64,000 nucleotides of DNA from Lytechinus pictus (Eukaryota). The position numbers and the translations under genes are program-made. This document shows positions 20,762-64,000 of this stretch, in pieces (positions within the stretch are counted from its first letter, which is position 1; each line of letters starts with the position of its first letter). Location: contig NC_087250.1 of the NCBI RefSeq assembly GCF_037042905.1, positions 7,938,001 through 8,002,000 on the forward strand. Reading direction: 5' to 3'. The notes beneath the pieces were generated by a model. It worked only from the letters and a program-made list of their open reading frames with translations, was not told the DNA's origin and did not search any database.

Positions 20762-22367
20762 CTCAAAATAAACTTTTTATAATATTAATACTTTTGTAAT
20801 TTTCTTATTACTGTGATTAAGCTAAATGAAATTGTGATCGTTTTCATAAAGGTGTGCAAGTACCGCAGTAGCACCAGGGTAGTACCATGGTACAGGTACC
20901 ACGGTACTATCGCAGTACTATCGCAGTACAGGTTTACAGGTACAGCGGTACTACTGCGGTAGTACCGCAGTATAGGTACCGCGGTACTACCGCAGTACAG
21001 GTACCGCGGTACTACCGCAGTACAGGTACCGCGGTTCTACCGCAGTACCTGTACTGCGGTACTACCGCAGTATAGGTACCGCGGTACTACCGCAGTACAG
21101 GTACTGCGGTACTACGGCAGTACTACTGCGGTACTACCGCAGTATAGGTACCGCGGTACTACCGCAGTACAGGTACCGCAGTACAGGTACCGCAGTACAG
21201 GTACTGCGGTACTACTGCAGTACTACCGCAGTATAGGTACCGCGGTACTACTGCAGTACTACTGCGGTACTACCGCAGTATAGGTACCGCGGTACTACCG
21301 CAGTACAGGTACTGCGGTACTACCGCAGTACCTGTACTGCGGTACTACTGCAGTACTACCGCAGTATAGGTACCACGGTACTGCGGTACTACCGCAGTAC
21401 CTGTACTGCGGTACTACCGCGGTACTACCGCAGTAGTACCGACCAATTTACCACGAGTACTACCGCAGTACTTGTACTGCGGTAGTACTGCGGTACTTGT
21501 ACCGCAGTACTACCGCAGTACTTTTTTACAAGGGTAAGCATTCGGCCCATTTTTGGTGTTTTAAAAAGCACATTTGCTCTAATAAAAATGCTGATAGTTT
21601 AAAAACAAGCACATGAACCCCTATTTTTTAATGTTTCTACCTCTTAGGTATACCTTCCTCTACAACTCTGCAAATTTTGGTGAAAATGACATGGATTTTG
21701 AATAAAGTGCAGCATTTATTGTACGTTTGTATTTTGTTACTGAAATTTTACATTTTTCAGATTGGGATTTTGTTATCTTTTACGCCATTTTTAAGAACTG
21801 ACAGTGCTGTTAAACTTAAAATTGCAAACAAATAGCACTATTAATAGATTCTCCATTCCAACGATACAATTATTAACTCTCTTGCGAAATTTGATGACTT
21901 TTTCATGTATTTTGAATGAGTAATGGAGGTTTAAACTCATTGTAGTAATCTTAGGCGGTCTAAAAATGTCAAATTCTTTTGAATGCGCAATTCTTAAGAA
22001 CATCAATTTGGGTGAACTTTGAAGCTCTATAGCAAAAAATCAAGCACATGGACCTATGTTAATTTTTGCATATTTCGAATATTAAGGTTCTAAAGTATCT
22101 ATGTGCAAAGTTTGGTGAAAATGACATGGATTTCACTTTAACTGTGGAACGTCCTTAATTTGATTTTTTTTCATAGTGTATGCAGTAAAATAATATGTCT
22201 GCATAGTCCATAGTTTTATACCATGGTACATTTGGAACTTCTTGCAAGAATTTCTCTGTGTTTTTTTGTTTATTTAAAACCCTTCTTAAACAAAGGATGA
22301 GCTGAAAATGATATAATCCTTTTAGGTCGCTATCTATATCCAATTACTGAATTCGTAAAGTAAGTAG

Positions 22368-41600: not shown

Positions 41601-44361
41601 TTTCCTGATTCTTCAATGGTGAAGACAATCATCTATTTGTACTTCCTAAACAATTATGAATGATTTAAGAGCCAAACTAGCTGAAATATGATATCTCTAC
41701 TGTTAATTATTTATGTAACAATTGGCTATCCATACTTAAACCACAACTTCAAACCTGAGTTTAAGTTAAACCCGACTTCAGAATACGGGCCCCCAGTCAG
41801 TAATCTTTGAGCATAGATTACACTTGATTCTACACTCGCTCCAGAACAAAGGAAATGGCTATTTTGGCTTGTTCATCCTATTGTTCTGTACCTGAGCGTG
41901 TATTTTTTAGTGTAAAATTACTTTCACACTCAAGATTACTGACTGCCACTGTATCTCACATAGAATACTTACATGTAATATTGACTGGCCTCGAGGGGAA
42001 CATAAAATATATTGCCCGCATTGAAATCATATTTGCCTGAGTCTTTAGACTAGGGCAATATGGTTCTCTTAAGGCCAATTGTTGTTTCCTGAAAGAAGCC
42101 AGTCAATATATTTATTATTATCCAAATCAGATATCTAGAGCAAAATTGTGTAAATTTAGATACGTATACCCTTTCAGAATGTGATTCTATTAATTCATGT
42201 TGAGCAGGCTGTGCCTCCAAGCTTTACCATGGTGACATATTTGAAATGTCGCAGTGTCCAGCGTTTGTCTCATTTTGTTTTACGTTATGACGTATATTAT
42301 GTTGCGCGGATCAATATGACGCGTATCTCTTTCTACATGTATGGATATGCACGGATGTGAGACCAGGGAAAATACAAAGGTATATTTTGCGTCGTCTCTG
42401 CATGCAAAGTCAGTACGCGCATTGAGACTGAGGAAAATACAAATAATATACCTATCCCTTCGCCATATTTATGAAATCTAGGGCAATATGGTCTGTAAAT
42501 TACCAGCTCAGATGTCTGATATATGGGTAATAATTGTCTTTATTGCTGATCTCTTTTCGTATGATTTTCTTCCTAACAATGGGCATCTGATTTGTTGAAT
42601 GCATAGATGAAGAGAGCAAGCATTTCAAGGCTGCATCTGATAAATGGAGACGACTCTTCACCATACAGGAAGATGAGAAGCTTGTCAACTGTAAGTCAAA
42701 CTTCTGGGAAATGTATGAATACCTTAGCATAGTTTTCGAGTAGTACAGCTTTTTCCGTATTTAGTACTGAAAAATTAGAAGAATACTGGTGGTTTATACA
42801 AAATACTGATTTTTAAAGCTCAGTTTTACGTGTTGTCCTATGGTATTTCTTTGAAAGTACTGATTTCCTCACCAAATTACTGATTTTCAGCTTTTAAAGT
42901 ACTGAAGTGTTTATGTTTAGGTTGGCTGCTCTGCCTTCGAGTAACCAACATGTACATGTACATTGAATTTACTATTTGGATACATGTATGTCAGATATTG
43001 ATTTTCTTGTTCTTGTCTTATTAATGTGAGTTTGAATGTTGAAACATGAATACAGTAAATAATATTACAGGGTTATAAAAAAAACAGCAACCCAGGTACG
43101 TGAAATATTTTCTTCATTTGGCCAAAGAATAAGTTAATCTTGCTTGACATTCATTGCTTAACACAGATTTGTTTATAAATGCATGCTTTTATTAATATAT
43201 TGACTAAATATATTTGCATTGCTCAATACACATATTTATTTTAAAGAAACGATAAAACTTTCCCTGTTCTGTTACTGAAGAGACAGCTTCTGTAGAAGGA
43301 GATTTTTTAATTGGTAAGCAGTATGGATTTTGTTTTTATTCAGGCTCTAAATCATCTAGGAAGGCAATAGTTTGTCCCGATGCCCATTAACCATTGATAA
43401 TCACTTATATGACATCAGAGCCACTCGTGCAATAATTTGTTATATTCAACCAATATTTATTCTTTTAGATTACTCCTGTAGCTACCCTCAGGGTTGGCTC
43501 TACTTCAGCGTGGAACATTTCAGTTTTTATTCTTTCCTGATGGGGACCGAGTCCAGGCTCCAAATCAGCTAGAAAGGCAATGGTTTGTCCCGATGCCCTA
43601 TTGGCAATGATTGCTTGATATCACAAGTACCCATGAACTAATTTGTTATATTCAACCGATGTTTATTCTCATAGATTACTCCTGCAGTTATTGGAAAGGG
43701 CGTGTACCTCGCCAGGGCTGGTTGTACCTCAGCGTGGATCATTTCTGTTTTTATTCTTTCCTCATGGGAAACGAGTCCAGGCTCCAAATCAGATGGACAG
43801 AAGTTACAGTAAGTAGAATATAATTCTATTATATAGTCTAACCTGTATTTAAAGGCCGCTCAAGGGGGACAAGAAAAGTGGTCCTCATGAGCAAGTGGTC
43901 TCTAATAATGCAGAGGTTCCTGTAATATGACTCATGGGGAAATCAAACTAAATGAAGTAATAAAATAGGTTTGACTATATCCTCTTCTTGTAAAGAACAT
44001 ATCAGCCAATATCTTTACACCCTTCAATCCATCATCATCATCACCATCATCATCACCACCATTCAACCACTACCACCACCATGATCATCATCATCACCAC
44101 AATTCAACCACCACCACCACCATGATCATCATTATTAACATCACCATCATCGTAATCACCATCATCTTCATCATCACAATCATCATCATTATCATTATCA
44201 TCATCATCACCATTATCATTGTCATCATTACCACCACCACCATCATGACCATCATCATCATGATGATCATGATGATCATGATCATCGTCGTCATCATCAT
44301 CATCATCATCACCATCATCATCAACATCATCACCATCGTCATCATCATCATCATCATTATT

Positions 44362-44393
<32 letters not shown>

Positions 44394-44402
44394 TATTATC
44401 AC

Positions 44403-44447
<45 letters not shown>

Positions 44448-44480
44448 TATTATTATCATCATCATCATCATTATTATCAC

Positions 44481-44537
<57 letters not shown>

Positions 44538-44571
44538 TATTATCACCATCATCATCATCATCATCATTATT

Positions 44572-44603
<32 letters not shown>

Positions 44604-44624
44604 TATTATCACCATCATCACCAA

Positions 44625-44675
<51 letters not shown>

Positions 44676-44709
44676 TATTATCACCATCATCATCATCATC
44701 ATCATTATT

Positions 44710-44744
<35 letters not shown>

Positions 44745-44748
44745 TATT

Positions 44749-44815
<67 letters not shown>

Positions 44816-44847
44816 CCACCACCATCACCATCATCATTACCACAACC

Positions 44848-44881
<34 letters not shown>

Positions 44882-45012
44882 CCATCATCACCACCATCAC
44901 CATCATCATTACCACAACCACCATCACCATCACCACCACCACTATCATCATCATCATCATCATCATCACCATCATCACCACCATCACCATCATCATTACC
45001 ACAACCACCATC

Positions 45013-45046
<34 letters not shown>

Positions 45047-48000: not shown

Positions 48001-49604
48001 TCATAATTCTATTGAAAATGCCCTTCAAATCACAATGGACAGATTGGAGGTCATTGTCAGAAGTTGGTGGACCAGGGGCCCATTTTATAAAGAGTTACAA
48101 CTGTTGTTTTGCCATAATGGCAACTACCATGGCAACAGGGCTCAGCAGCCAATCAGAATCAAGGTTACCATGGTAGTTGCCATAATGGCAAAGTTACAAC
48201 AGTTGTAACTCTTTATGAAACGGGCCCCTGGAAAAGCACATTGTCTTAAGAATCGGTCCGGATGGAAAATTGCAATTACGCCGTTTGTCAGTGACGACAA
48301 GTGCTGCTGTTTTGATTCACCGATATTTGACAAAGGCTGCTTTTTTATGAAGAGCTTTTAACAAAAAATAATCAGCATTATAGAAAGCGTCTGCAAAGGG
48401 ATTGCTATAGTACCCTATTACTAATACAAACATTCATGAATGTTTCTTTCATGACTTTGGCATATATGTTTTAACAAAGATAATCAGCATTATAGAAAGC
48501 GTCTGCAAAGGGATTGCTAAAGTGCCCTATTACTAATATATATATTCATGAATGATTCTTTGGCATAATGTTTATTTTTCAGAAATACATTGGTGCTAAC
48601 AAGTTAGTTAACCCCACCAGTAAATGAACATATTTAGGAAGTGTTCAAGTTCCGCAATCTTTTAGATGTTTAGTTGTGAAGTCAGATGATAAAATATTAC
48701 ATTCAATTAAAGTTCGTTTCTCTGGGCTAACCGGACTTAGTAGTGTTGCGGGCTACATTCAACACTCAGCATGAAGGAGTGCATTTTCTGGTGGGGTTCA
48801 CAAACTTTTTAGCACCATTGTACATGCATGCTCGTGTATTGATATTGAATTTGTTTGTGTTTTTTTTGTGGTCAGATCAAGAATCTTGTTCAGGTGGTTA
48901 TACCGATGAGAGATGTAACGGTGGTGGAGAAGGTTGAGAATTCATCCCTCATCAACCAAGGGCTACATATATCAACAAGAGCTAAGGTAAGAGGATGGTG
49001 GTGGTGGTAGGAGTGGTGGTGATGGTGGTGATGATGATGGTGGTGATGATGACAATGAAGGTGATGATGATTGTGGTGATGATGATGATGATGATGATGA
49101 TGGTCGTGGTAGGAGTGGTGGTGGTGATGGTGATGATGATAATGATGATGATTGTGGTGATGATGATGATGGTGATAGTGGTGGTGATAGTGATGATGAT
49201 GATGGTGGTGATGATGGTGATGATGATGATGATGATGGTGATGATGATGGTGATGATGATGATGAAGATGACCATGATGGTGGGGATGATATGATGATGA
49301 TTGTGATGATAGTGATGTTGGTGGTGATGGTGGTGGTGATGATAATGATGATGGTGATGATGATGGTGATGATAATGATGAGGATGGTGATGGAAAAGGT
49401 TGAGAATTCATCCCTCATTAGCCAAGGGCTACATATATCAACTTGAGCTAAGGTAAGATGATGGTGGTATTGGTAGGAGTGGTGGTGGTGATGGTGATGA
49501 TGATGGTGATGATGGTGGTGATGATGATGATGATGATGATGATGGTGATGGTGATGATGTTGGTGATGGTGATGATGGTGGTGGTGGTGATGATTATGAT
49601 AATG

Positions 49605-49636
<32 letters not shown>

Positions 49637-52600
49637 GATGATGGCCCTAATGTTAATGACAATGATAATGAAGGCAGTGAAAAATGAAAATGAAAAAATA
49701 ATGATGTCATTAACAAATATGGGGATAGTTATCATGTTGTTACTGAAAATAATAGCAATGATAATGACTAATAATAATAAATATTTAATAGCTGATACTG
49801 GTTACTCGTGGTAATAGATTTACTTTACCTAGATGATCAAGTGTTCACAATATATTTTATTTTTTTTAATTTACAGATGACATTCCTCTTTGCACAGCTG
49901 ACTGACAGAGATTTTCTTGTTCAACATATATCTGATTTCCTTGCAAAAACAACCGAAAATGCCAGGTAATGCCTATGGCAAATCGAAAGCAGAATGAAAA
50001 CGACAGACCAATATATATATTGATAATATTGGTAATAATGGTAATGGTGAAGATAATTTATTGTAATAATAATGTTAATAATAATAATAACAATAAATTA
50101 TAATGCACCAAATCCACTCTGCAGAGTGCTCAAGGCGCAATGCCGGAAGGAAGAAAGAGAGAGAGAGAAAAGGAAGTTATACATACATGTATGCAGTGAC
50201 AAATGAGAGAACTTGAGGAGTTATTGACAATTAAGAGTAAGAATCATTAAATAGATGCATATTTAGCTAACGTTTATTGTGTCAACAGAAGTGCATTCAC
50301 AAAAAACCAAGGTAAGATCATTCTAGAGAACAAGATCAGCGGGAGCAAAAGCCTTTATTTCTTATTCTTAATTTTTATGAAGTCTTTCTTTATATAATGT
50401 TTATGTTAGGGTATCAATTCAGTTCAATGACTGTAATCATTCTTGTTTTCATTTACAGACCTACAGGAGACGGCATCTCCATAGCGTCGTCAAACGAGGG
50501 CAGTATAACACGCTCTACCGCTGATCCAATGCAAAGCTTACTAAGTTCAAGCTTCGGTAGCAACGAGAGTGGTAAGTAGGTTCCCTCTTTCTGAATATCT
50601 TACCGTCTGTCCGTGCAATATGAATTTTCATATCCCATCAATTCGGTGGATTCACGATACGGTGCGCCATCTATCCGTTGCAGCAAACAGGCCAAATTTC
50701 TAACTTCTACCTTCTTAACGTACAAAAAAAAAATTGTTTGGATTTTGTGGTACAAATAATAATGCTCTTAACTGTATCATGATGATCTTAAGAAAAGAGA
50801 TATATTTTGCCAAATTTTGAAAAGACATTTACCACAATTATGTCGGCTTTAAAACTTTATTATGAAATGGAAAAATGTTTATATGAAACAAATTTCAGAG
50901 CAAATAAGTTCAGAAAGAAACGGTTTTGTTTCAGAAACTGTTTCAAACAAGCTGGCAATCTGTCACCTTATCATACATAATTATTACCAATGTTTATTTC
51001 TTAGATATATGTATCAGATCTCTTATTTTTCTTGCCAAATTTGCTTTGGCTGTGACAACTTATTGATTGTATAATAGGTCAGTTTGACTATGTGTCTATG
51101 TATTAGGAATTATGTATATTTACTGTTTGTCTGAAAAATTTGTAAATGTTTATACAGTGTAATTATGCTTTTCGAAAATAAAGAACCTTGTGGAAGGGAG
51201 AATTTTTTTTTTCTAACTGCGGGGTCGACATGGCGCGGGTGCATGCAGCGTACAGTACTAGTATACTGTATTGTTACTGTGATGGTTCCAAAATGAAAAC
51301 CATATGGCAAGTATTCACCAAAAACAGTCTAGATTTCGCAAAGAAATAGGCGGGCAAATTTCTCTCCCACCTCCTGGACCCTAGTAAACAGCATACATGT
51401 ATCTGGTCGAGCCTCGTCAGCCAGGGAGAATAATCGTTGCATGCATGCACTTTATAGTACTAGCGCGTGCGCAACAGATTTGACTTTTTCCCGTGAGGCA
51501 TCGCGAATTTCGGCCCGTCTGCTGCAACCGCTAGATGGCGCATCGTATAGTAAATCCACCGAATTAATATCTGTCTCTATTTTTCTTTCGTTCTATATAT
51601 CATAATTACTTTTTTTCTTTGTGTGACGATGCCTGCAGGTTTGCTGTTAATGCTTTCTAATGCTAATATAATTTTAAACATTTTATGGAGACATTGTAGG
51701 TCAGCTTAGGGGCCCGTTTCATAAAGTACTTGCAACTGTTGTAACTTTTGCCATAATGGCAACTACCATGGTAACAGGGCTCAGCAGCCAATCATAATCA
51801 AGGTTACCATGGTAGTTGCCATAATGGCAAAGTTACAACAGTTGCAAGTTGATTTATGAAACAGGCGCCAGATCTTGGATATGAGTAATTATGCCAATAT
51901 TTCTTTTGCTTTTCATGCGAGTATACTTTACATTAAATTTTAAGGCTTTGTACAAATCAAATAGTAAATATCCCTCTTTGTGCATCGGTACAAGATTTTG
52001 CATTGTTGAGTTGAATAGATTATCTTTATTTCGCCTCCTGCGAAAAAAACCATTGCATGAAGAGCAATATTTGCTATTTTTACAATAGCCAATCAATAAC
52101 AATGTTGCATGCACTTTTTGTTCAATGAATTGATGAGGAGCCAATTAAAATTACTCTTTAATCACTCCACTGCCAAGTTTTTTATTACAACCCTCCTTTC
52201 TTCACTTTGGATTTGTTTTGATTAAAGGGAAACTTCACCCTGACAAAAAGTTTATTGTAAAAATAGCAGAAAAATAATAAAAAATATTTGGGAGGGTTTG
52301 AGGAAAATCCATTGAAGAATAAAAAAAATTATTACAATTTCAATTATTTGATTTGTGACGTCATATGCGAGCAGCTTTCCTACATATCAATGGTAAAAAA
52401 TCAATAAAATTTCATTATCTCAGAAAATTGAAAATGGTTTTCATTGTACCTTCAGTACATCAATACACAAATGATTTCACACCCGATCATAAAAGAAAAT
52501 AAAAAATTAGTCCTCACGAACCATCAAAAAATTATATTTATGCATTTTATATTACATCACAATATGGAGTGGCTGCTCGTTTATGACGTCACAAATCAAA

Positions 52601-55600
52601 AACTTGAAATTCGAATAGCTTTCTAAATCTTTAATGGATTTTCCTTAAATCTTCACCAATATATATTTTCTGTTATTTTTACAGCAAAGTTTTCATCAGG
52701 GTGAACTCCCCCTTTTATATGTTTGAGATAAATATTTCATAATTTTATTTTTTTCTTTTCATCAGATCCTAGCTCTAACTACTCATCCATGATGTATTAC
52801 TCTACAGTGTTAACAGACCTCAACGATTATGATAATAATGCATGTGAGTTCCATAGACATCAGTGGGCGTATTTACACTTTCACATTTTCCTTAGTCTTG
52901 TTAATCTACAGTGTTAACAGAAATTATGATAATGCATGTCAATTCCATTTACATGAGTGGGTGTATTCACATATTCACATTTTCATTGGTCTTTATTTCT
53001 CTTTTGTTGAACATGCCTCAACGATTATGATAATAATGCATGTGAGTTTCATAGGCATCAGTGGGTGTATTCATACATTCAAATTTTCCTTAGGCTTTAT
53101 TTACTCTAGAGTGTTAACAGACCTCCTTGATTATGGTAATAATACATGTGAGTTCAATAAACACCCGTGGGTGTATTCACATTTCAACATTTTCCTTAAG
53201 CCTTTCAATTTCTTTTTTTAAGTTAAAAAACTGAATGTAATTGATTCCACTTGTAGGTAATGATTTCGCTGCATAATTTTTAATATTTCCGAAAAGATGT
53301 TTTTCCTTTGTATGAAGGTCATTCAATTTTCATTTTATTTCATTCATCTTATTTATATTCCTCGATGCATGCTGCTTTCTGGCAGCAATATTTGTTTTCA
53401 TTTTTGCCCCTGAAACAAGCAGTAATTAACCCAATCACACCGTATTATTTATGTTCCAGCTCATCTGAGTGTTAAATATTCATGACTATCTATTGAATAT
53501 TCATTTTAGCCCCTGAAACAAGTAGTGAATCAGTGTCGCATTTCAGCTCCAACCTGCCTTACTGTAAGATATTCATGAAAATTGAATATTCATTTTAGTC
53601 CCTGAAACAAGCAGTGAGTTGCCCAATCACGGCGTAGCATTTCAGCTCCAACCTGCCTTAGTGTTTAATATTCATGACTCTATTGAATATTCATTTTAGC
53701 CACTGAAACAAGCAGTGAGTCACCCAATCACAGCGTAGCATTTCAGCTCCAACCTGTCTTAGTGTTTAATATTCATGACTATCGAATATTCATTTAGCCA
53801 CTGAAACAAGAAGTGAGTCGCCCAATCATGGTGTAGCATTTCAGCTCCAACCTGCCTTAGTGTTTTATTATTCATGACTATCTATTGAATATTCATTTTA
53901 GCCACTGAAACAAGCAGTGAGTCACCCAATCACAGCGTAGCATTTCAGCTCTAACCTGCCTTAGTGTTTTATTATTCATGACTATCTATTGAATATTCAT
54001 TTTAGCCCCTGAAACAAGCAGTGAGTCGCCCAATCACAGCGTAGCATTTCAGCTCCAACCTGCCTTAGTGAAGGTATTCAACAGAAGAGGATCAGATGAA
54101 ATACCGGCAAGAGAGACGGTGAAAGAGCATCTATGGAATATGCACTTCAAAGAGTATGGGAGGTGAGTAGAAAGAGATAGAGAGAGAGGAAGGGGGAGGA
54201 AGAGGAGACAGATGGGGAGAAGGAGAGGTGGAGAAAAATGGGGAGAGAGAAAAAAGAAAGCAAGATAGAGTGAAAGAACATCTGTGGAATATGCACTTCA
54301 TTGAAAATGGAAGGTTAGTGGCAAGAGAAAGATGGGTAGGGGGAGTGAGAAATGGGAAGAGGGGGTAGGGAAGGAGAGAACGAGGGAGGGGGGAGGGGAG
54401 AAAGGGAGTGGGGATAACTGAAGCAAGAGAAACAGTGAAAGAAAGAGAGATTGCAGGAGGAGGGAGAGAATGAAAGAGAAGGGGGGAGGGAGGGAGGGGG
54501 GGATAAAAACTTCAAGAAAGACATTGAAAGAACATCTAAGATGGAATATGCACTTCAAAGAGTATGGAAAGTTGGTAGAAAGAAAGAGAGAGAAGGGGAG
54601 GAGAGAGATGGAGGGGGGGGAAGAAGAAGAGGGAGAGAGAGAAGTGGGAGGGAGAGGGAGGAATGCAAAGCAGTGAGAGAGACGGCAAACGAACATCTAT
54701 GGAATATGCACTTAAAAGAGTATGGAAGGTTAGTAGATGCGAGGAGATAGAGAGAGAAAGGGGGAGGGGGAGGAAAGGAGGGGAGAGGGTGGGGGAGAAG
54801 GAGAGATGGAGAAAAATGGGGAGAGAAAGTGGGGGAAAAAGTGGAGGAGGGGGAATAAAAAAAAGAAAGCAAGATAGAGTGAAAGAACATCTATGGAATA
54901 TGCACTTCAGAGAGTATGGAAAGTTAGTAAAAGAGGTAGAGAGAGAGTGGGAGAAAATAAAAGATAGAGGGAGAGAGAGAGGCAGGTGGTGATGGAAAGA
55001 GAGGGGGATTAAAACATTTGTAGAATGAAAAAAATGACATGTCTAGGGTGGATTCAAATATTGTTTCACAGATGTATAATGAGGAGAAAATTAACACATT
55101 ATAATGAGCAGAAAGTTGTAAGTGCCTTGTCTAGTTTTGCTTGCAGGGGTGTATGTATGTACCGTACAGTTGAGATGCAACATCTAATTATTAAAGGGAG
55201 TCCACCTAATAAAAAGTTGATTGAATAAAAAAGAAAAGTCCAAGCAGTATAATGCTGAAAATGTCATCGAGATCAGATACAAAAGAAAGAAAGTCATGAC
55301 ATCTTATTTTTAAACCAGACCATGCGCATATTTTATAATATGAATTATCCAATATTTCAAGTTTTGCAGATTGGACAAGAAGGAGAATCTTCATCAAATC
55401 ACAGTAGGTTTAATACCAAAATGGCAATTCGATATGTGCAGGGAGGTATCAAACTTTGTTTCATGTTATTATGGGAGAAAATTAAAAGACCCTTGTCTTG
55501 TTTTGCTTGCAGGGGTGTATGCATGTATCGTACAGTTGAGACTCAGCATCTAATTATCAAAGGCCTTCCTGATAGCCTAAGAGGGGAGATGTGGATGCTG

Positions 55601-58402
55601 TACTCTGGCGCCATCAATGAGGTTAGTGCCCTTTGAAGATAAATGCCAGTTGGAATGATTTCGAAATAAGTTCATATCGAATCCAATAAAATGACCACCT
55701 AAGAATTCGGTGGAATCAAAATACGGTGTACCATCTATTCGTTGCAGCGAAAAAGCTGAAATTCGCAATGCATCATGGGAAAAAGTCAACATCTGTTGTG
55801 CATGCTGAGTGTGAATGCATGCATCCGATTATTCATCGCTGGCCGCCACGGCTCGACCGGATATGCTGTTTACTAGGTTTATTCTGTTTGCAGTGCTATT
55901 TCATTATGCCACGATGGTGAAGAAAACTGATTCAGTTAGTATTTCCAGGCAATAATGGATGACCTGAATGAGAGTTGAGCTTCAAAATTGAACCTGTACT
56001 TCTAAAAACTTGTTTCACAATTTGGCTTTCCATAGTTAAACCACAGCTTTAGACCAGAGTTTAAATTAAACCAGAGTTCAGAATATGGGCCTTTAGGTGG
56101 TATTCTGATGGCCATGGTTTAGTTAAACCCGGTTTAACTTAGACCACACTATTATGGAGTGCCACTTGTCAACTTTTATTCACAAATAATTATTCTTATC
56201 CTGTTGCAAAAAGTTGTCAAATAATAATAGAATCCTGAAATTGGAAGAATAGGAAAATACAAAAATATAATGAATTTTTATGAATTTATTGGTACGTAAT
56301 GATTTCCATGAATACGGAAGAAGTATTCTGAAGCCAGCATTCCATACAAGTGTGGTATAAAGTACTAGAGTGAGACCTATATGTAATTATCAAAATACCA
56401 CCAATTGTGTTCATATGAAAAGCATGATATTATAGTGGAATATTGTTATTGTTTATTGTAAAATTTGGTCTCATATTTCAGATGGCAACACAACCTGGGT
56501 ATTACCAATCATTAGTTGAACAGAGTCTGGGGAGAGAGACTATTGCTACCGATGAGATCGAGAGAGACCTTCATAGGTAATATATTGGTTTATATTCATC
56601 TGGGGAAAATATTATTACAATGATGGGGTTTCCATAGAATTGAGGTTGATCAGATCAATCGTAACTCTTTGTAAGACGGGACCTTGCTACATTTGTTTTA
56701 TATCCTACTTTAATAAGTTAGAATAATAGATATTGATAATCTAGTTCTTGTACTCATAGTTAATAAAAAAAAAAAAATCTGAACAAAATATAGGTAACGC
56801 GCTCTGCTGACTGACCTATTTCGGAACGCGGATTAGTGCCTGCGCCGTCCCTTCACGGGACTTGCCCGGTAGAGACACCTTGCTGACCGAGAGATTGCAT
56901 TATCTGTCACGGAATAGTCAATTTTCCTTAGTGGGCGTTTTGTTTTGACGGCATAACTAGAATATCCATGGTTACGTGATGCTATTTGAACCAATCACTA
57001 TACAGGATTTGATTTATGTAGGATATAATAAAAACTATTTGATTAAAACCCTGTTCTATTTAGATCACTACCCGAGCATCCTGCCTTCCAGTCCGAGCTC
57101 GGTATAGCAGCTTTGAGGAGAGTTCTTACAGCGTATGCCTACCGTAATCCAACCATTGGTAAGAACCTTAAGGTGGGTTAGGAGGGGGGGGTGAGGTAAG
57201 GTATAGCAGCGTTGAGGAGGGTCCTTACAGCGTATGCCTACTGTAACCCAACCATTGGTAAGAACCTTAGAGTGGGGTAGGAGGGGGGGGGGGGCAGTGG
57301 CGGACCGTGACCCGGAGGAGACAAAGCATTGGAGGGGCACAGCATTGTTCACAAACAATACAGTGCCCCTCCAATCATTTGTCTCCTTTGGGTCACCATC
57401 CGCCACTGGGGGGGGGGGGGTGAGTTGGGGTATAGGAGCGTTGAGGAGGGTTCTTATCGCGTATGCCTATCGTAACCCAACCATTGGTAAGAATCTCCGG
57501 GTGGGATAGGAGAGAGAGAGAGAGATAGATGAGATGATTGTGTATTATTATTGTGTCTTAATACGGAGTTCAGATTGAATTGAGAAATGTTCCTTTTCAG
57601 GACTACCCACATTCTGAGCTACTGTATGATTCTCTTTTGCGTTATGTAATTTTGTTTGATTCATTTGTCATTATTTGTCATTATTTTAACTGTCATGTTC
57701 ACATGTGCTAAAAAAATTGTAGTGTTTAATTTCTCATATGTATAAGCTAGTGGAGGAAACATTTCTATGTAATTTTTTTATTGAATATCATAGATGAATA
57801 AATCAAAATGAATTTAATTGAATAGGTATACATGTAGGATGTTATAGTAGAAGTATTAAAGACCATCAGCAAATTTCGATGGTTTTAATATTATACCCCG
57901 GCCTGTGACATAAAGCTCAGTGATTAATCATAGTGCTGAGTTTTGCAATTGATCATGCACATTAATCAATGGAATCAATCGTAGTAATCCGACCTACGAT
58001 CATTTTCTAAGCTTCATGTTACCGGGCCCAGTACATCAGTCCAACATAGCCTATATTTCTGGCAAAAAAAGAAAAGAAATTATTTTGGGGGGCTACTTTT
58101 CACAACATATTGTCTACATGTACATCTGCTACATTGGGTAAGCTTTAACACTGCAATGAATGGGAATTTTCCAGGGCTCCTTTTTGTGTTTTCTGGGCCG
58201 AGTCTTACAAAAAGTTACGATTGATCCGATCAATCACAACTATGGAAAGCCAGCAACGTCAGAGCGTGGATCCCCTAAGATAGTATCAGAGCTGCCAAGT
58301 AGTACGATTTTTCCGTATTTAATACGTTTTTGCAACCGAAATACGGCAGTACGTTTTTTCTTTAAAAAATATGTTTTTTGTATTTAAAAAAAAAAAAAAA
58401 TA

Positions 58403-58440
<38 letters not shown>

Positions 58441-61400
58441 ATCGAAATTTATTGAGAAAAATCATCTCTATATGTCTCTATTTCATAAAACGTACACAAA
58501 TATGGTTATTAGATCAATGTAATTTCAGGTAACTTGTTTTTTTTTTCAAATCATTTTGTAAAAACCAGGGTGAGATATACACAAGTTTCAATGATTTTTT
58601 TTTCAATCTGCAAGAGCAGTGCACATTTTAGCTTGCATGCAGCTTGAGCGCCGTGATGGGCGAGTGCGCCAAGCATTTTAATATGAAATACACTTTTTTT
58701 GGGAAAAATACAAAATATTTATCTCACACGGTAAAAATACTGATTTTTTTGTCAAAATACTGATTTTGGGGGATAAGAATACTGAAAATGCAAAATACAA
58801 CTTGGCAGCTCTGTAGTATATTAAACATTTGAAAAATGGGTCTCGTTCGCAAGTGTAAATACAATAAGTTAAAATAGAATATTGGAAATAATAAGATGGT
58901 GAGTAATAGCGAGAAATGATAAAAAGATGACAGAGATACGGGACGATACAAAAAAACTAAAAGGAAAACAAAGACATGACGAAGAATAGAGGGGAGAGAG
59001 AAGGAATTAAGTACTGAAAGGGGAGTGAGAGGGCAAAGATAAAGTGGGGGGAGAGAGACAGATAGAGAGGGAGGCACACACACACGCAGATTATGTGGAG
59101 AGAAAGGGTCAGAAGGAGAGAGGGGGGGGGGGAAAGAACGAGAGTGCAAACGTAGATCAAAGAGAGTGTGACTTAATAGCGTGCTTAGACAATACTAAAA
59201 ATATAAAACTAATTAATTACTTTGGTAAGACAGTAACATAAATATTTTTAGTTTTCTCTTAAAGGAGTGGATAGAGGGGGCCTGTTGAACATCTTTATGG
59301 AGTGAATTCCAAAATTTGGGGGCGGTGAAAATAAAAGTATTTTGCGCAAAACGAGTTCTTAAGATAGGTAGATGAAAGTTATCGGCTTGTCTGGTAGGAT
59401 ACCTATGAAAATTGTTATTTTGAGAAAACAAATCATGAAATGCAAAAGGAACCATATTGTTTTTATACATGTACATAAACTGTCCAAGCTGAAATTGGTA
59501 TAAGTCTTGAATCTTTAAAATTTTATAATCAAGGAAAAGCGGATCAGTGTGAGAACGGGGGTGTGAGAATGAAATAATACGAAGGGCTTTTTTTTGTAAT
59601 AATAATATTTTGTTAAGTAAACTTTGGTGGGTATTGCCCCAAACAAGGATCCCGTAGTTGATACATGTATATGGTAATATAAGAGGTGTGAGAATGAAAT
59701 AATACGAAGGGCTTTTTTTGTAATAATAATATTTTGTTAAGTAAGCTTTGGTGGGTATTGCCCCAAACAAGGATCCCGTAGTTGATATATGGTAATATAA
59801 GAGAAGAATATAATGTAAGTAGAGAAGTAACAGGAATAAACGTTTTCAACCTATTTATGATGCCTATATTTCGGGATATTGTTTTACAAATATTATCAAT
59901 ATGGCATTTCCAGCAGAGTTTGTTATCTACACGAACTCCCAAAAATTTAATTGAGGAGACACTTTCCAATTTAAAATCTTCAATAAAAATGTCAAAAGGT
60001 AAGGAATCTATGGTATTACTGAATAAAATGTATTTAGTTTTTTTAAGGTTAATTGATAATTTGTTAGCTCTGATCCAATTCAAAATATTAGTTAATTCAG
60101 AGTTTATTATGTTAACAAGTGTAAGCGGATCATTGTGAGAGAAGAATAGATTTGTGTCATCAGCAAAAATAATGAAAGATAAAATGTTAGATGCTCTGCA
60201 AAAATCATTTATATATAAAGTAAACAAGAGAGGTCCCAGAATACTTCCTTGTGGCACACCACAATTAATATTACACAAATTAGAGGAATGGTCATTGAGA
60301 AAAACAAATTGATTTCTGTTAAAGAGGTAATTCCTGAACCACTCCAAGGCCTTCCCACGTATGCCATAATGCGATAATTTATGAAGTAGGATGTCATGAT
60401 TAATAGTGTCGAAGGCCTTGGAGAAGTCCAGGAAAATACCGACCATGTGTGAGGATTTATCGACAGCATGAGCAACTTTTTCAACAAAGGATAATAAGGC
60501 GTGAATTGTACTGTGCTTTTCTCTAAATCCAAACTGGAAATTTGTATATTCATGCATTCTTTGTTTTATTGAAAATTCACCATGCCTCTCTTTGTTTACA
60601 AAGGGCATTTTTCAAATTTCCTGCAGAAAAAATTATGACACTGATGGATTTTCATAGAGTTATGATTGATTGGATCGCTCATAACTCTTTGTAAGACGGG
60701 GCCCAGGGCTATATCGAGCATGTCGGGGGCAAAATCGACTCGACCCTATGTAAACATTCCCCTGCTAATATTGATATTTTATCTATTAGGTTACTGCCAA
60801 GCAATGAATATAGTAACTTCAGTGCTGTTACTATATGCCAACGAAGAAGAAGCGTTCTGGCTACTGACGGCTGTATGTGAACGGCTCCTTCCCGACTACT
60901 ACAACACTAGGGTCATTGGAGCACTGGTGGATCAGGGTACGTACATCCAGTTATCTGATATGGGGCCCAATCTCACAATACTTTTACCAATATTTTATCA
61001 GTTCTTTATCAATACTCGTACAGGAAATAAAACAAGGACTTAAATGTTTACGAACTCCAACTTTCTTTAGAAAGTATCGATAATTCTTCTTTTAGCTACA
61101 CCTTTAATGTACAATCACTTTATGAGTTTCTTATTTCATTACATTCTTAAAGAGGTCCACTCCACTCCCCAATCCAGAATAAAAGTTATTAGAGTGGTCA
61201 AGGACTCGTTGTTGTTATAAAAAGGGTTCAGTTGAGAACTGCAGTCAGACTAGACTTAAATGATCACGACTTGACTTTCTAAATAAGATATCAGATTGCA
61301 GGTTTCAATTCAGTTTCAGTTTAGTTTATTTCACTTCCATTTTCTGATAATAAACATAACAAACATATATATACATATGTATAAATGTACAAAACAGAAT

Positions 61401-63746
61401 AAGTGTCATAAGAATACTTCAATAATCAATTAACAAATTCGTAGGAAATAGATGAAATGTATACAATTTTTGTTCAAGATACATTTTGATGGTTTCGACA
61501 TCGCAGTTTACAGAGCACTAATAGTATGCCCAGTCACATCCTTTGGATTGTGATGTCAAACATTGATCCAAAAAGATGTAAAATAACGCATTGTTGTAAC
61601 ATTAGGCATAGCTGAAACACTACCTGTTGTAACAGAGGCCTCTATTAGAGCATTTTTAGCGCTAAAAACGTGTCTGTGCGGCCGGTCGAGGGCTGTGCTT
61701 TCGTCAATATGATCCAATTCAGAGGGTATCATTATCAATGCCAATCAATATTGTATCAAGGCCACCGCACACCTTACGACCCGACGGGTCTACGACTGGC
61801 TTGCGACTGAGTGAGGGGAGATGTGACGTCACAGCACTTGTCAGCTTGAGTCGCGGACCGGTCAGAGACAAGTCGCAAGGAAAATCGTAAGGATTTGACA
61901 TGTCGAATCCTTATGACTGGATCGCAAGCTCAATCCAACTTCCAGCCAATCAGACAGCAAAGTTGCACAACGCATATATGATAAACAACGCGCATACGCA
62001 GTAGTAAGCGCATTTTCTCAGTTGCTATGGAAAAAGCAAAAAGCGCATGCGTGAGTCGCAGACAGCGTAGTAGTCGGATCGCAAGGTGTGCGGTGTCGAG
62101 GCTTATGACCACCTTGCGATTTCATCTCTACTCAGTCAGTCGCAAGCCAGTCGTAGACCAGTCGGGTCGTAAGGTGTGCGGTGGGTGGCCTTTAAATGAT
62201 AATATGTATCCTAATCAAATGATTAGCTAAAATCTGTCCGTGACCAGTCATTTACTTTAGCTAACTTGAAAAAGTTGCTAATGACTGGTGCGAATGACTA
62301 GTTAAATTGACCAATCATGGTTTTAAAATAAGGATTAAAACAAGGATCCTCACTATCACTATTTTTTTATAAAACATTTAAAACGTATAAATAAAACGTA
62401 TAAAACGTATAAATAAAACGTATAAATGATGCACGTCAATTATGTATAAAACGTATAAAACGTATAAATGATGCACGTCAATTTGTTTGGGAATTCGAAT
62501 CATTACACACTCTTGCTACCTTTGAATCTGTTCAAGTGCCCTCGGCTGAGCCTCGGGCATGTTAAAACTGTTCCAATGGTACCTTGTGCACCTAATTGTT
62601 CCTATTGCCTGTGATGATGTGCATTATTTTTGTATTATATGACACCTAGATGGATCCTTGTCATTTGATTGGTTGTGTGATATCGATCATTCAGCCCATT
62701 TTACAATGACGTCATCATCCGTGCAATTTTGGATCCATACGATTTTGTCCATTGCACGTGTGCATCGAGACCGCAGGGGCCACAAATAAAAACAGTGGTG
62801 TTTGCAGTGCGCATGTTGTGTGTAAGTGACAATCAACAGACAAGCTCACACCGCGTGAGCTTATCTTTGATCAAAATACATAAATCTCAAATGATAAAGG
62901 ATCTATTTTAGTTGTCATATACTAGTAAACCAAATAATGAATATTCTTTTCATTCTTGCAATGTAAAGAATACTTCATTCGGTGATAGATGAAATGAATG
63001 ATCCATTCTAAGAGGCATATCCGAGTTGATGGATCAATTCATCTTTCACCTCGTGAGGTATCCTGTCCATGGCACCCCTAAACATTCATTATTTGTATAC
63101 TGTATTACTCAGGTGTATTTGAAGCCCTTACCAAAGAAACCATGTCTGAGCTATACAAGTTTGAAACAGTTCACTTGCCCTCAGCTAATCCTTGGGCATA
63201 TTAGAACTTTTCCAATGGTACACGGTGCATATAATTCTTACTAATGCCCTTAATGGTGTGTTTTATTTGTATACTATCTTGCCCAGGTGTATTTGAAGCC
63301 CTAACCAAAGAAACCATGTCTGAGCTATACAAGTTTGAAACAGTTCACTTGCCCTCAGCTAATCCTTGGGCATATTAGAACTTTTCCAATGGTACACGGT
63401 GCATATAATTCTTACTAATGCCCTTAATGGTGTGTTTTATTTGTATACTATCTTGCCCAGGTGTATTTGAAGCCCTAACCAAGGAAACCATGTCTGAGCT
63501 ATACAAGTTTGAAACAGTTCACTTGCCCTCAGCTAATCCTTGGGCATATTAGAACTTTTCCAATGGTACACGGTGCATATAATTCTTACTAATGCCCTTA
63601 ATGGTGTGTTTTATATTTATACTATCTTGCCCAGGTGTATTTGAAGCCCTAACCAAGGAAACCATGTCAGAGCTATACATGAAGATGGAAGAACTAGGAA
63701 TGCTGAGTATGATCTCTCTATCTTGGTTCCTTACAGTCTTTCTAAG
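23620..63746 (+). CDS. TBC1D9: TBC1 domain family member 9-like Rab GTPase-activating protein (GRAM-GRAM-TBC); multi-exon, 3' end beyond window
   Basis: 18 GT-AG exons join in frame. The translation [32 protein letters not shown]...[16 protein letters not shown]...[19 protein letters not shown]...[16 protein letters not shown] matches the TBC1D8/9 family as I recall it, including the TBC IxxDxxR and YxQ catalytic fingers. Confidence 0.95.
25590..26112. mobile_element. Cluster of about three related MITEs (gtgtttcataaagctg..cagctttatgaaacac); another copy at ~47409-47590
   Basis: Repeated inverted termini, Harbinger-like size. Confidence 0.6.
26207..26370 (+). CDS. TBC1D9: TBC1D9 coding exon 2 ([35 protein letters not shown]...ELYH)
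   Basis: cag acceptor, gtaagt donor, phase compatible with exon 1. Confidence 0.92.
26405..27450. repeat. Degenerate (GAT)n microsatellite with an internal ~345-bp duplication
   Basis: Direct reading; ggttgcaaatggtgatggtaacaatgat at ~26470 and ~26808. Confidence 0.95.
27756..27833 (+). CDS. TBC1D9: TBC1D9 coding exon 3 ([26 protein letters not shown])
   Basis: tacag/gtaag, conserved HWEWxEQNL. Confidence 0.9.
29204..29775. mobile_element. Kolobok-like MITE
   Basis: TTAA-AGGGCAA...TTGCCCT-TTAA. Confidence 0.7.
30023..33913 (+). mobile_element. 5'-truncated CR1/L2-group LINE inserted in a MITE
   Basis: ORF1 C-terminal remnant ([17 protein letters not shown]), ORF2 with PHD-APE-RT, 3' stem-loop near 33765-33821, AATAAA plus (TCAA)n tail. 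Confidence 0.92.
30405..33577 (+). pseudogene. LINE ORF2: PHD finger, apurinic endonuclease, reverse transcriptase; frameshifted near 33250
   Basis: C4HC3 [31 protein letters not shown]; an (AT)n slip splits 30405-33281 from the C-terminal frame ending at 33577. Confidence 0.9.
33971..34564. mobile_element. Kolobok-like MITE
   Basis: TTAA-AGGGATGGTCCGGGCTG...CAGCCTGGACTATCCCT-TTAA. Confidence 0.8.
35041..39730 (-). mobile_element. Near full-length single-ORF CR1-group LINE (Daphne/Rex1-like), antisense in TBC1D9 intron 3
   Basis: APE+RT ORF, ~1-kb 3'UTR, AATAAA and (TAC)n tail at ~35041-35070; 5' boundary approximate. Confidence 0.88.
36092..39430 (-). pseudogene. LINE ORF: hydrophobic leader, 2A-like peptide, APE, RT; one in-frame TGA at 38624-38626
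   Basis: ORFs 38624-39430 and 36092-38623 abut in one frame; [37 protein letters not shown]. Confidence 0.9.
40052..40153 (+). CDS. TBC1D9: TBC1D9 coding exon 4 ([23 protein letters not shown]...)
   Basis: cag/gtaaaa, phase 1-1, FExxxDxTxFVxxKI. Confidence 0.85.
40569..41025. mobile_element. Sola2-like MITE
   Basis: GGGCAATTCCA / TGGAATAGCCC termini, 4-bp TSD ATAT, internal gtaacgtgagtaacc repeats. Confidence 0.7.
41504..41791. mobile_element. Harbinger-like MITE
   Basis: GGCCCGTATTCTGAAGTCGGGTTTA inverted termini; fragments at ~1668 and ~56060. Confidence 0.75.
42607..42690 (+). CDS. TBC1D9: TBC1D9 coding exon 5 ([28 protein letters not shown]), start of GRAM1
   Basis: tag/gtaagt, EKLVN motif. 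Confidence 0.9.
43675..43808 (+). CDS. TBC1D9: TBC1D9 coding exon 6 ([32 protein letters not shown]...), GRAM1
   Basis: atag/gtaagt, highly conserved GRAM sequence. Confidence 0.93.
44030..45213. repeat. (CAT/CAC)n microsatellite, ~1.2 kb
   Basis: Direct reading. Confidence 0.97.
45246..45448 (+). CDS. TBC1D9: TBC1D9 coding exon 7 ([16 protein letters not shown]...[14 protein letters not shown]...)
   Basis: ctag/gtgagg, MEQLANxAMRQLL motif. Confidence 0.92.
45881..45952 (+). CDS. TBC1D9: TBC1D9 coding exon 8 ([24 protein letters not shown])
   Basis: ttcag/gtaaga, LKRDLDARA motif. Confidence 0.92.
46021..46816. mobile_element. hAT-like MITE with 6-bp TSD; relative at ~25292-25522
   Basis: TIR TAGGGACAGTGATTTTCCG, TSD TTGATG, subterminal ttccgt repeats. 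Confidence 0.8.
47103..47235 (+). CDS. TBC1D9: TBC1D9 coding exon 9 ([13 protein letters not shown]...NYICFASR), GRAM2
   Basis: gcag/gtaagt, FRLPxxEKLDG and NYICF motifs. Confidence 0.92.
48075..48228. mobile_element. Palindromic Harbinger-like MITE; sister copy 51709-51869
   Basis: GGGGCCC..ATAAAG..CAACTGTTG arms, near-identical second copy. Confidence 0.75.
48876..48986 (+). CDS. TBC1D9: TBC1D9 coding exon 10 ([24 protein letters not shown]...)
   Basis: tcag/gtaaga, IPxRxVTxVEK motif. Confidence 0.9.
48990..49645. repeat. (GAT/GGT)n microsatellite in two blocks, part of the exon-10 duplication
   Basis: Direct reading. Confidence 0.92.
49877..49965 (+). CDS. TBC1D9: TBC1D9 coding exon 11 ([25 protein letters not shown]...)
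   Basis: tacag/gtaatg, FLFAxLxDRDFLV motif. Confidence 0.92.
50459..50571 (+). CDS. TBC1D9: TBC1D9 coding exon 12 (Ser-rich linker)
   Basis: tacag/gtaagt, open frame, phases fit exons 11 and 13; weak homology. Confidence 0.75.
50641..51564. mobile_element. MITE with ATTCGGTGGATT..GCGCCATCTA inverted termini; fragment at ~55704
   Basis: ~33-bp imperfect TIRs; TSD unresolved. Confidence 0.65.
52226..52713. mobile_element. Kolobok-like MITE
   Basis: TTAA-AGGGAAACTTCACCCTGA...TCAGGGTGAACTCCCCCT. Confidence 0.7.
52803..53200. repeat. ~100-bp degenerate tandem repeat (about 4 units)
   Basis: gtgttaacaga..ttatgataat..gtgggtgtattcaca recurs. Confidence 0.7.
53398..54068 (+). repeat. ~100-bp tandem array of the exon-13 acceptor and 5' half (7 units, the last is the live exon)
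   Basis: tattcattttagcc(c/a)ctgaaacaagcagtgagt..tttcagctccaacctgcctta repeated. Confidence 0.9.
54006..54162 (+). CDS. TBC1D9: TBC1D9 coding exon 13 (...[33 protein letters not shown])
   Basis: ttag/gtgagt, KExxWxxHFxEYG motif; several alternative upstream acceptors exist. Confidence 0.85.
55513..55621 (+). CDS. TBC1D9: TBC1D9 coding exon 14 ([36 protein letters not shown]), TBC start
   Basis: gcag/gttagt, GxPxxLRGExW motif. Confidence 0.92.
56482..56576 (+). CDS. TBC1D9: TBC1D9 coding exon 15 ([32 protein letters not shown])
   Basis: tcag/gtaata, arginine-finger IERDLHR. Confidence 0.93.
57064..57158 (+). CDS. TBC1D9: TBC1D9 coding exon 16 ([32 protein letters not shown])
   Basis: ttag/gtaaga, conserved TBC sequence. 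Confidence 0.93.
58287..58813. mobile_element. hAT-like MITE with 6-bp TSD TAGTAT
   Basis: TIR CAGAGCTGCCAAGT / ACTTGGCAGCTCTG. Confidence 0.75.
59213..60545 (-). mobile_element. 5'-truncated CR1/L2-group LINE RT fragment with a ~126-bp internal tandem duplication
   Basis: [26 protein letters not shown]; duplicated gtgtgagaatgaaataatacgaagggc at ~59561 and ~59687; splits a MITE (58193-58261 / 60546-60705). Confidence 0.88.
60790..60936 (+). CDS. TBC1D9: TBC1D9 coding exon 17 ([26 protein letters not shown]...GALVDQ)
   Basis: ttag/gtacgt, glutamine-finger YCQAM. Confidence 0.95.
61760..62190. mobile_element. Harbinger-like foldback MITE
   Basis: GGCCACCGCACACCTTACGACCCGAC inverted termini. 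Confidence 0.75.
63090..63678 (+). repeat. ~174-bp tandem array of the exon-18 acceptor and 5' part (4 units, the last is the live exon)
   Basis: caggtgtatttgaagccct..accatgtc.gagctatac at ~63111, 63284, 63458 and 63632. Confidence 0.92.
63635..63746 (+). CDS. TBC1D9: TBC1D9 coding exon 18 ([38 protein letters not shown])
   Basis: ccag/gtaagt, [12 protein letters not shown] motif. Confidence 0.92.
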
Positions 63747-64000
63747 GTAAGTTTGTTCAAATTTATTTTCCATTTCAGTTAAAGGGGAAAAAAATTGTTT
63801 TTCCTGCTTTGTTCGACTACAGTCAAATACAGCAGACTGCCAAGTTCTATTCACAATACAACCAGAGTGCATTAAGTCTTTTGTTCACACACATACACAA
63901 TAGTGATGTGTGCATCTCATTGACTGTGTACTCACAAAGCTTTTTTTTTACAATAAACCAATCAAAAGCTGTTGTAAGCTGAATTAGCATAATCCATATG

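Follow-up and report, generated by a model that had tools for sequence, protein, structure and literature searches.

Partial copies of exon-intron junctions in a TBC1D9-like gene of Lytechinus pictus and the probable source of their silent differences from the live exons

The window, i.e. the whole stretch of DNA analysed here, covers 64,000 nucleotides of the Lytechinus pictus genome. The 1396-amino-acid 'TBC1 domain family member 9B-like' protein of L. variegatus (P0001) is 100% identical to an exon translated from the window, and the window holds a TBC1D9-like gene. P0001 departs from the window translation at five residues (H135, N190, G410, V492 and P502), and each of these is shared by the annotated L. 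pictus protein P0122, which places the gene in L. pictus. P0001 was used as a sister-species outgroup, at the protein level only.

Exons were placed using exact peptide anchors from P0001 together with GT/AG sites. Nineteen exons, all on the + strand, were thus located between 23620 and 63747 of the window, and 8 further exons downstream of the window on the same contig. The exon numbers of the original prediction, which was made from the letters of this stretch, are one lower than ours from its exon 14 on, i.e. its exons 14, 16 and 18 are exons 15, 17 and 19 here.

Each exon was compared with the window by BLASTN, and extra copies were found for seven of the 19 exons (6, 10, 13, 14, 15, 17 and 19). 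There are 21 such partial tandem copies, here called echoes, in eight arrays, where exon 14 carries an array on each side (Table 1). The echoes of the original prediction were recovered, by BLASTN and by alignment, at the places it had given. Every echo is partial and lies across one splice junction, carrying a single splice site and then a copy of intron; an echo of a whole exon with both acceptor and donor was found in none of the 21 cases in the window. The acceptor-side arrays (exons 6, 14, 15 and 19) repeat the end of the intron with its AG, followed by 45-126 nt from the 5' end of the exon, with the live unit standing last. In the donor-side arrays (exons 10, 13, 14 and 17) the repeat comprises 47-67 nt from the 3' end of the exon, followed by the GT and the start of the intron, with the live unit standing first. 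Array units measure 92-466 nt and are between about 75% and 99% identical to the live unit, the exon 19 array having a period of 174 nt and an identity of 96-99%. A ninth array is found just downstream of the window, where the final 88 nt of exon 22 and the donor are echoed 8 times at a period of about 92 nt. The junction is included in all eight window arrays and in the exon 22 array.

Table 1. Live exons, their echoes and an inserted element in the window. Positions are those of the window.
Feature	Position	Strand	Basis or content
Further partial unit of exon 6 array	43341-43409		
Exon 6 echo unit	43410..43615	+	Intron 3' end, AG and copy of the exon 5' part (about 43469-43576); 18-nt deletion, TAG stop
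Live exon 6 (part of GRAM domain)	43675..43808	+	Gene model fitted to P0001; equals P0122
Live exon 10	48876..48986	+	Gene model
Exon 10 echo	49386..49670	+	3' 67 nt of exon (49386-49452), donor GT and copy of the downstream (TGA)n-rich intron
Live exon 13	52766..52843	+	Gene model
Exon 13 echoes (n=3)	52891..53219	+	3' 47 nt of exon, donor and intron start; period about 100 nt
Exon 14 5' echoes (n=6)	53397..54005	+	Intron end, AG and first 65 nt; period about 98-104 nt, 202-nt higher order
Live exon 14	54006..54162	+	Gene model; echo arrays on both sides
Exon 14 3' echoes (n=4)	54235..54971	+	Last 55 nt and GT donor, within GA-rich intron sequence
Exon 15 echo	55099..55197	+	Intron end, AG and first 51 nt of exon
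Live exon 15 (14 in the original prediction)	55513..55621	+	Gene model
Live exon 17 (16 in the original prediction)	57064..57158	+	Gene model
Exon 17 echo 1	57200..57290	+	Last 58 nt, donor and intron start; period 99 nt
MITE-like palindromic element, about 114 bp	57294..57409	.	Between exon 17 echoes 1 and 2
Exon 17 echo 2	57410..57512	+	Exon part 57429-57486
Exon 19 echoes (n=3)	63089..63634	+	First 45 nt each, with upstream intron and AG; span also holds the intron part of the live unit
Live exon 19 (18 in the original prediction)	63635..63747	+	Gene model

The splice dinucleotide (AG or GT) has been retained in 20 of the 21 window echoes, including the GT in all 11 echoes of donor type. 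A stop codon or a frameshifting indel is present in 7 of the 21. The exon 10 echo carries AGA>TGA, which is a stop, and stops and frameshifts occur in two of the three exon 13 echoes; other echoes have indels of 10 nt and 1 nt. Two features were considered as signs of selection on the echoes and set aside. The 18-nt in-frame deletion of the exon 6 echo is a single event with a one-in-three chance of keeping the frame, and the retention of 20 splice dinucleotides is not clearly above the 16-18 or so estimated from overall divergence.

According to the annotated proteins and the gene model, the contiguous copy of the junction is the one used at each array, as both P0122 and P0001 follow the live exons only. 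No insertion derived from an echo was found in the annotated proteins of the two Lytechinus species. Exon 13 is skipped in isoform X2 of L. variegatus (P0123). The first 155 letters of one read contig (run X11) match 54006-54160, within live exon 14.

For the comparison of codons each distinct variant was counted once per array and classed against the background of the live codon, which gives small counts for the individual arrays. The original prediction had held that the echoes differ from the live exons mainly at synonymous sites, and had listed changes in four arrays. Three of these lists proved exact: CTA>CTT, AAG>AAA and TCA>TCT, all silent, for exon 19; silent GCT>GCG, AGA>AGG, GTT>GTC and AAT>AAC with the missense change CGT>TGT for exon 17 echo 1; and silent TGC>TGT, TAT>TAC, CAG>CAA and ATC>ATT with one missense codon, ACT>ATG, for exon 15. 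For exon 6 the approximately eight silent changes were confirmed as 8, while the four missense changes became 9 replacements, including the stop TGG>TAG, and the two in-frame deletions became one deletion of 18 nt in a MAFFT alignment.

Taken together, the four listed arrays hold 22 silent and 13 replacement variants, in agreement with the claim. The claim fails for four further arrays within the same coordinates that were not listed; these hold 21 silent and 51 replacement variants (silent/replacement 3/3 for exon 10, 2/15 for exon 13, 8/19 for the exon 14 5' array and 8/14 for the exon 14 3' array). Pooling all eight window arrays gives 43 silent and 64 replacement variants. The exon 22 array, outside the original selection, has 15 silent and 25 replacement variants, and the variants common to at least 6 of its echoes comprise 3 silent changes and no replacement. 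Echoes in another gene behave in a similar manner, with 12 silent and 13 replacement variants for a myosin exon (L058).

Silent differences between copies would also be expected if the assembly had written the second haplotype in tandem where diverged introns meet conserved exons, in which case both copies would be functional alleles. The species is highly polymorphic, the arrays do sit at exon-intron borders, and the youngest echoes differ from the exon at silent sites only. We nevertheless consider such an artefact highly improbable: an array may hold up to 8 copies, more than two haplotypes can supply; identities fall to about 75%, with stops and frameshifts; and the echoes end part-way through the exon with no continuation along a haplotype. 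Furthermore, the MITE-like element, which has 80 scored matches on both strands of its own genome (among 1307 first-look candidates), sits between the two echoes of exon 17, and the arrays are therefore old genomic features rather than stutter of the assembly.

Two null models were used for evaluating the silent bias. In the fully neutral null the type of each mutation was kept and its position within the same exon segment was randomised. The eight arrays have 43 silent variants against 27.5 expected under this null (P=0.0005). The silent excess over strict neutrality is real, but the description 'mainly synonymous' is true of only half the arrays.

In the second null, the dead-echo null, the echo drifts while the live exon takes silent changes and a fraction omega of the replacements, with omega set to 0.05-0.2. 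The expected silent share for one echo is then 2p/(2p+(1-p)(1+omega)), and it is lower with many independent echo branches. For the window this null predicts 33.0-40.8 silent variants of 107 against the 43 observed (P=0.018-0.36), and for all nine arrays 45.9-56.8 of 147 against 58 observed. The outcome for the nine arrays depends on the tree assumed for the echoes, P being 0.015 for a star tree (45.9 expected) and 0.44 if the echoes share one branch (k=1); the true tree lies between these two extremes. The four arrays of the original prediction do exceed the dead-echo null when taken alone (22 silent, 13.3-14.9 expected, P=0.0014-0.0087). They are, however, the silent-rich and favourable half of a heterogeneous set of eight, the other four being at or below expectation (21 silent observed, 20.2-25.9 expected). 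Goodness of fit across the nine arrays gives P=0.03-0.10.

Changes were assigned to branches by using the echoes of multi-echo arrays as outgroups for each other, together with outgroup proteins, over the nine arrays (eight in the window and that of exon 22). Variants found in a single echo comprise 21 silent and 61 replacement changes, where neutrality predicts 18.9 silent (P=0.33), and have a dN/dS of about 0.9; as the arrays are mosaic, such variants represent changes on the echo branch only approximately. Variants shared by 2 to k-1 echoes are silent-rich (13 silent, 15 replacement, 7.8 silent expected, P=0.02). Where every echo of a multi-echo array carries the variant, there are 8 silent changes and no replacement, while neutrality predicts 2.8 silent (P=0.00014). 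Such a gradient would arise if the deep differences mainly reflect substitutions in the live exon and the shallow ones reflect decay of the echo. Neutral echo branches, together with silent differences that separate an exon from its entire set of echoes, form the very pattern that the original prediction had named as speaking against it.

The proteins give the same direction. At 63 of 64 replacement variants the live residue is that of the L. variegatus ortholog, and usually also that of more distant echinoderms, and these replacements therefore arose on the echo branches. The lone exception is residue 190, which is N in the L. pictus exon and T in the echo, in L. variegatus and in 7 of 8 more distant outgroups (Branchiostoma has K). 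This distribution of residues indicates that N190 arose on the live branch and that the exon 6 echo keeps the ancestral T190. One reading offered by the original prediction, that the echoes are snapshots of earlier alleles, holds in the plain sense of the words, as the exon 6 echo shows.

The demonstrated branch assignment, neutral echo branches and disabling lesions lead us to the following explanation, which we consider likely: the echoes do not code for protein but are partial copies of exon-intron junctions in decay, and constraint on the live exon produces the silent bias. Local tandem duplication would have produced minisatellite-like arrays in which each unit of 92-466 nt combines one splice site with some exon sequence and some of the intron next to it. 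The working copy would be the unit contiguous with the rest of the exon, i.e. the last unit in an acceptor-side array and the first in a donor-side array, and the decoy splice sites of the other units are presumed to be silent. The echo branch is neutral and collects replacements, stops and frameshifts; on the live-exon branch purifying selection lets only silent changes pass. The sum of the two branches gives a pairwise dN/dS of approximately (1+omega)/2, about 0.5 rather than 1. In this plain sense each echo preserves, with decay, the state of the exon at the time of copying. Since the live-exon branch is constrained, the silent bias needs no selection on the echoes. The original prediction had reasoned that dead copies should show mostly non-synonymous differences, and in doing so overlooked the live-exon branch, which takes almost only silent changes.

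A coding role for the echoes, now or recently, as pieces of alternative or mutually exclusive exons under purifying selection, would produce low ratios as well. Pairwise pN/pS is indeed low in some echoes (0 for exon 19 and about 0.09 for exons 15 and 17), and almost all echoes have kept their splice dinucleotide, although most would do so by chance at the observed divergence according to the estimate given above. The echoes are however no complete exons, having one splice site and then a copy of intron; a third are disabled; the single-echo variants are neutral; and the annotated Lytechinus proteins of both species pass over them. Echo and live unit have diverged by 11.4% over their exon sequence and by 15.0% over their intron sequence, and this ratio of 0.76 may be compared with estimates of about 0.65 if the live exon alone is constrained and about 0.3 if both copies are. 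The coding alternative is already largely refuted and we regard it as extremely doubtful. The proposal that the echoes were recently under coding selection is likewise not borne out, given the stops and frameshifts in 7 of 21 and the lack of any echo equal to a whole exon.

Exchange of sequence is another matter. Units might swap with the live exon through unequal crossing-over or gene conversion, or some might have been copied from another, still functional allele in this very polymorphic species. In both cases part of the divergence between echo and exon would have built up in functional exons, which would add silent differences to those of the two-branch model. Four-gamete incompatibilities are seen at 6 of 10 site pairs in the exon 14 5' array, 18 of 36 in the exon 14 3' array and 15 of 45 in the exon 22 array, but such failures also result from recurrent mutation. 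A residual silent excess is present under the star-tree null and in the variants of intermediate frequency; the totals, on the other hand, fit without exchange if the echoes share history as in the k=1 null.

Variation within the species also bears on this alternative. Compared with the window, the older L. pictus model P0125 has the changes V3I, N467T, P470T and E500D, and its companion model P0124 has M685L. At residue 470, where P0125 has T and the window P, the three echoes nearest to exon 14 (e4-e6) carry ACT, which encodes T. P470T is one of two polymorphic residues in the segments covered by echoes, and with a chance of a match estimated at about 0.14 per site it is not significant; we treat this sequence match as a lead, not a result. 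Exon 11 shows five variants in its 89 nt in other individuals. The suggestion that echoes exchange sequence with the exon by conversion has circumstantial evidence on its side, namely mosaic arrays and one within-species polymorphism, P470T, that equals the echo state. We consider it rather unlikely that exchange or allelic copying adds to the bias; a modest extra silent component could come from either process.

The placement of the arrays was examined by a uniform self-comparison of 124 kb, i.e. the window and 60 kb downstream, which yielded 25 clusters of local direct repeats. Of the 11 local tandem arrays belonging to the gene, nine lie across a junction. Random placement of founder units of equal length predicts 1.7 junction arrays for the whole gene and 2.3 for its exon-dense part (P<=1.6e-5). 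Slower decay of units containing exon sequence would raise the expectation about 1.5-fold by our estimate, which is insufficient to account for 9 of 11.

For comparison with other genes, exon loci were taken from Pfam searches of the L. pictus genome. Echoes were found at 2 of 22 myosin-head exons and at 0 of 30 kinase loci, against 8 of the 27 exons of the TBC1D9-like gene; this gives a rough frequency for the genome, and the kinase loci, being long open frames, represent junctions poorly. By Fisher's test the difference has P=0.15 when the gene is set against the myosin exons only and P=0.002 when the two samples are combined.

A more far-reaching version of the exchange idea is that junctions are preferred substrates of local tandem duplication and unequal exchange in Lytechinus, and that the arrays serve as a reservoir of tolerated exon variants which enter the coding sequence, P470T being an example. 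A possible reason for the preference would be that very diverged haplotypes retain homology in their exons only. If true, this would cover both the at least roughly fourfold excess of junction arrays and the residual silent excess, but we rate it as quite improbable.

Some known systems resemble these arrays. When a dead copy is compared with its functional parent, Ka/Ks lies between the omega of the parent and 1. The echoes behave as a pseudogene does towards its parent, with one neutral and one constrained branch, a dN/dS of about 0.5, and replacements and stops on the dead copy; the copy branch has a dN/dS near 1 and the replacements are derived in the copy, as in a dead duplicate. Unlike a pseudogene, the echoes are fragments smaller than an exon, located in introns of the same gene and arrayed, so that they polarise each other.

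The closest layout is that of the 37-bp VNTR in intron 7 of human F7, whose first element lies across the boundary of exon 7 and intron 7 (Borensztajn et al. 2006, PMC1557585). In that array the authentic donor is in the first unit and is followed by pseudo-donors, which stay silent because the most upstream site is chosen (PMC1557585). The donor-side arrays of exons 10, 13, 14, 17 and 22 share this layout, and the L. pictus arrays as a whole have a tandem unit across an exon-intron boundary and repeated splice-site sequence, as F7 has. The likeness is one of sequence layout. The L. pictus units are longer, at 92-466 nt, of which 45-126 nt are coding, there are mirror-image arrays on the acceptor side (exons 6, 14, 15 and 19), and nine arrays occur in one gene.

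Partial tandem duplication of exon sequence is reportedly a source of new or shifted introns, as Hellsten et al. are said to have found (2011, PMC3265369). Introns are known to be gained, or to slide, when a partial tandem duplication involves an exon (Lehmann et al. 2010, PMC2891723). The echoes share with duplication-born introns a local tandem duplication that touches coding sequence and duplicates splice signals. In those cases, however, the duplicate is located within an exon and the stretch separating the two copies turns into an intron, whereas for the echoes the intron was there before, its position is unchanged relative to the proteins of other echinoderms, and the copies just decay in it.

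Tandemly duplicated, mutually exclusive exons are exemplified by exons 5a and 5b of SCN-alpha together with unannotated copies (PMC12772994). The likeness is in copies of an exon lying in the flanking intron on the same strand. The SCN-alpha copies, however, comprise the complete exon with acceptor, donor and open frame, whereas the echoes are fragments, a third of them disabled. With no whole-exon copy and no maintained frame they do not qualify as alternative or mutually exclusive exons.

The finding has an ordinary cause and points neither to hidden coding selection nor to a new kind of exon. It does illustrate a common trap, namely that a comparison of a dead copy with its live parent will always suggest selection, as half of the comparison runs along the live sequence. 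Arrays with several echoes polarise changes without an outgroup genome and show directly the silent substitutions that the live exon has fixed. With nine junction arrays this gene carries many intact decoy acceptors and donors beside its real splice sites, and the density and placement of such arrays merit a separate genome-wide look. If the concentration at junctions is general, it would bear on the choice of a splice site where identical sites lie next to it, and on the reshaping of exon borders by tandem duplication in very polymorphic genomes.

Nine of the 11 local tandem arrays within the TBC1D9-like gene (window 43341-63679 together with 66429-67222 in continued coordinates, on the window's own contig, G000:C6) span an exon-intron junction, and 8 of the 27 exons carry such an array. 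With founder units placed at random as the null, 1.7-2.3 junction-spanning arrays were expected (P<=1.6e-5). The ninth of these echo arrays, i.e. tandem partial copies of a junction, belongs to exon 22. It comprises 8 copies, each consisting of the last 88 nt of the exon and a GTAAGT donor, and the period is about 92 nt; the unit is almost entirely exon sequence. A longer 5' extent is common to echoes e5 and e8 and to the live unit, i.e. the working exon copy. Coordinates of this array and of other features are collected in the table.

Features discussed in the text (window numbering, continued downstream of the window for exon 22; G000:C5 coordinates for the myosin gene)
Feature	Coordinates	Strand	Description
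Exon-22 echo array (L009)	66354-67222		just downstream of window
Exon 13	52766-52843	+	78 nt, in frame
Palindromic element	57294-57409		~114 bp, inserted between exon-17 echoes 1 and 2
(CAT)n microsatellite	44030-45190		~1.1 kb, intronic
(TGA)n microsatellite	48990-49650		~0.65 kb, intronic
(TGA)n microsatellite	26408-27402		~1 kb, intronic
Long open frame	30351-33281	+	976 aa, LINE-like
Long open frames	36092-39445	-	843+273 aa, LINE-like
Long open frame	59213-60611	-	332 aa, LINE-like
Tandem duplication	59560-59791		124 bp
Mirror-image blocks	3822-4529; 6510-7177		opposite orientation
Palindrome-rich arrays	7717-8121; 20890-21522		upstream of gene
Myosin-head locus L058	G000:C5:8558095-8561325		two upstream copies, 76-80% identity
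Myosin-head locus L064	G000:C5:8583706-8586879		junction-spanning unit ~75 nt, 78% identity

Exon 13 is absent by skipping from L. variegatus isoform X2 (P0123), and a decoy-donor array follows it, as is the case after some other exons. The (TGA)n tract of about 0.65 kb was duplicated jointly with the exon-10 echo. The palindrome looks like a MITE; 80 scored matches to it were found genome-wide (from 1307 first-look candidates), on both strands and with an identity of up to 97%.

The long open frames, which are located in introns 3 and 17, look like LINE reverse transcriptases/endonucleases, and the 332-aa frame contains the 124-bp tandem duplication. The two mirror-image blocks share tandem repeats with periods of 31, 129 and 20 nt, are separated by about 2 kb, and resemble terminal inverted repeat arrays such as those of a foldback-type element. 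Two sites upstream of the gene contain arrays, with periods of 11, 25, 36, 72 and 155 nt, in which the repeated element is a short motif rich in palindromes, TACCGCGGTAC/TACTGCGGTAC.

Residue 470 is P in the window (codon at 54006-54011) and T in P0125, an older L. pictus protein model. In the three exon-proximal echoes (53700-53966) this codon is ACT, which specifies T. P0125 further differs from the window by V3I, N467T and E500D, and another L. pictus model, P0124, by M685L. The amino-acid variation within L. pictus is thus of roughly the same size as its divergence from L. variegatus, which amounts to 5 residues in 706.

Partial upstream copies are also present at two exons of one myosin gene elsewhere in the L. 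pictus genome (L058 and L064), and the echo phenomenon therefore extends beyond the TBC1D9-like gene.
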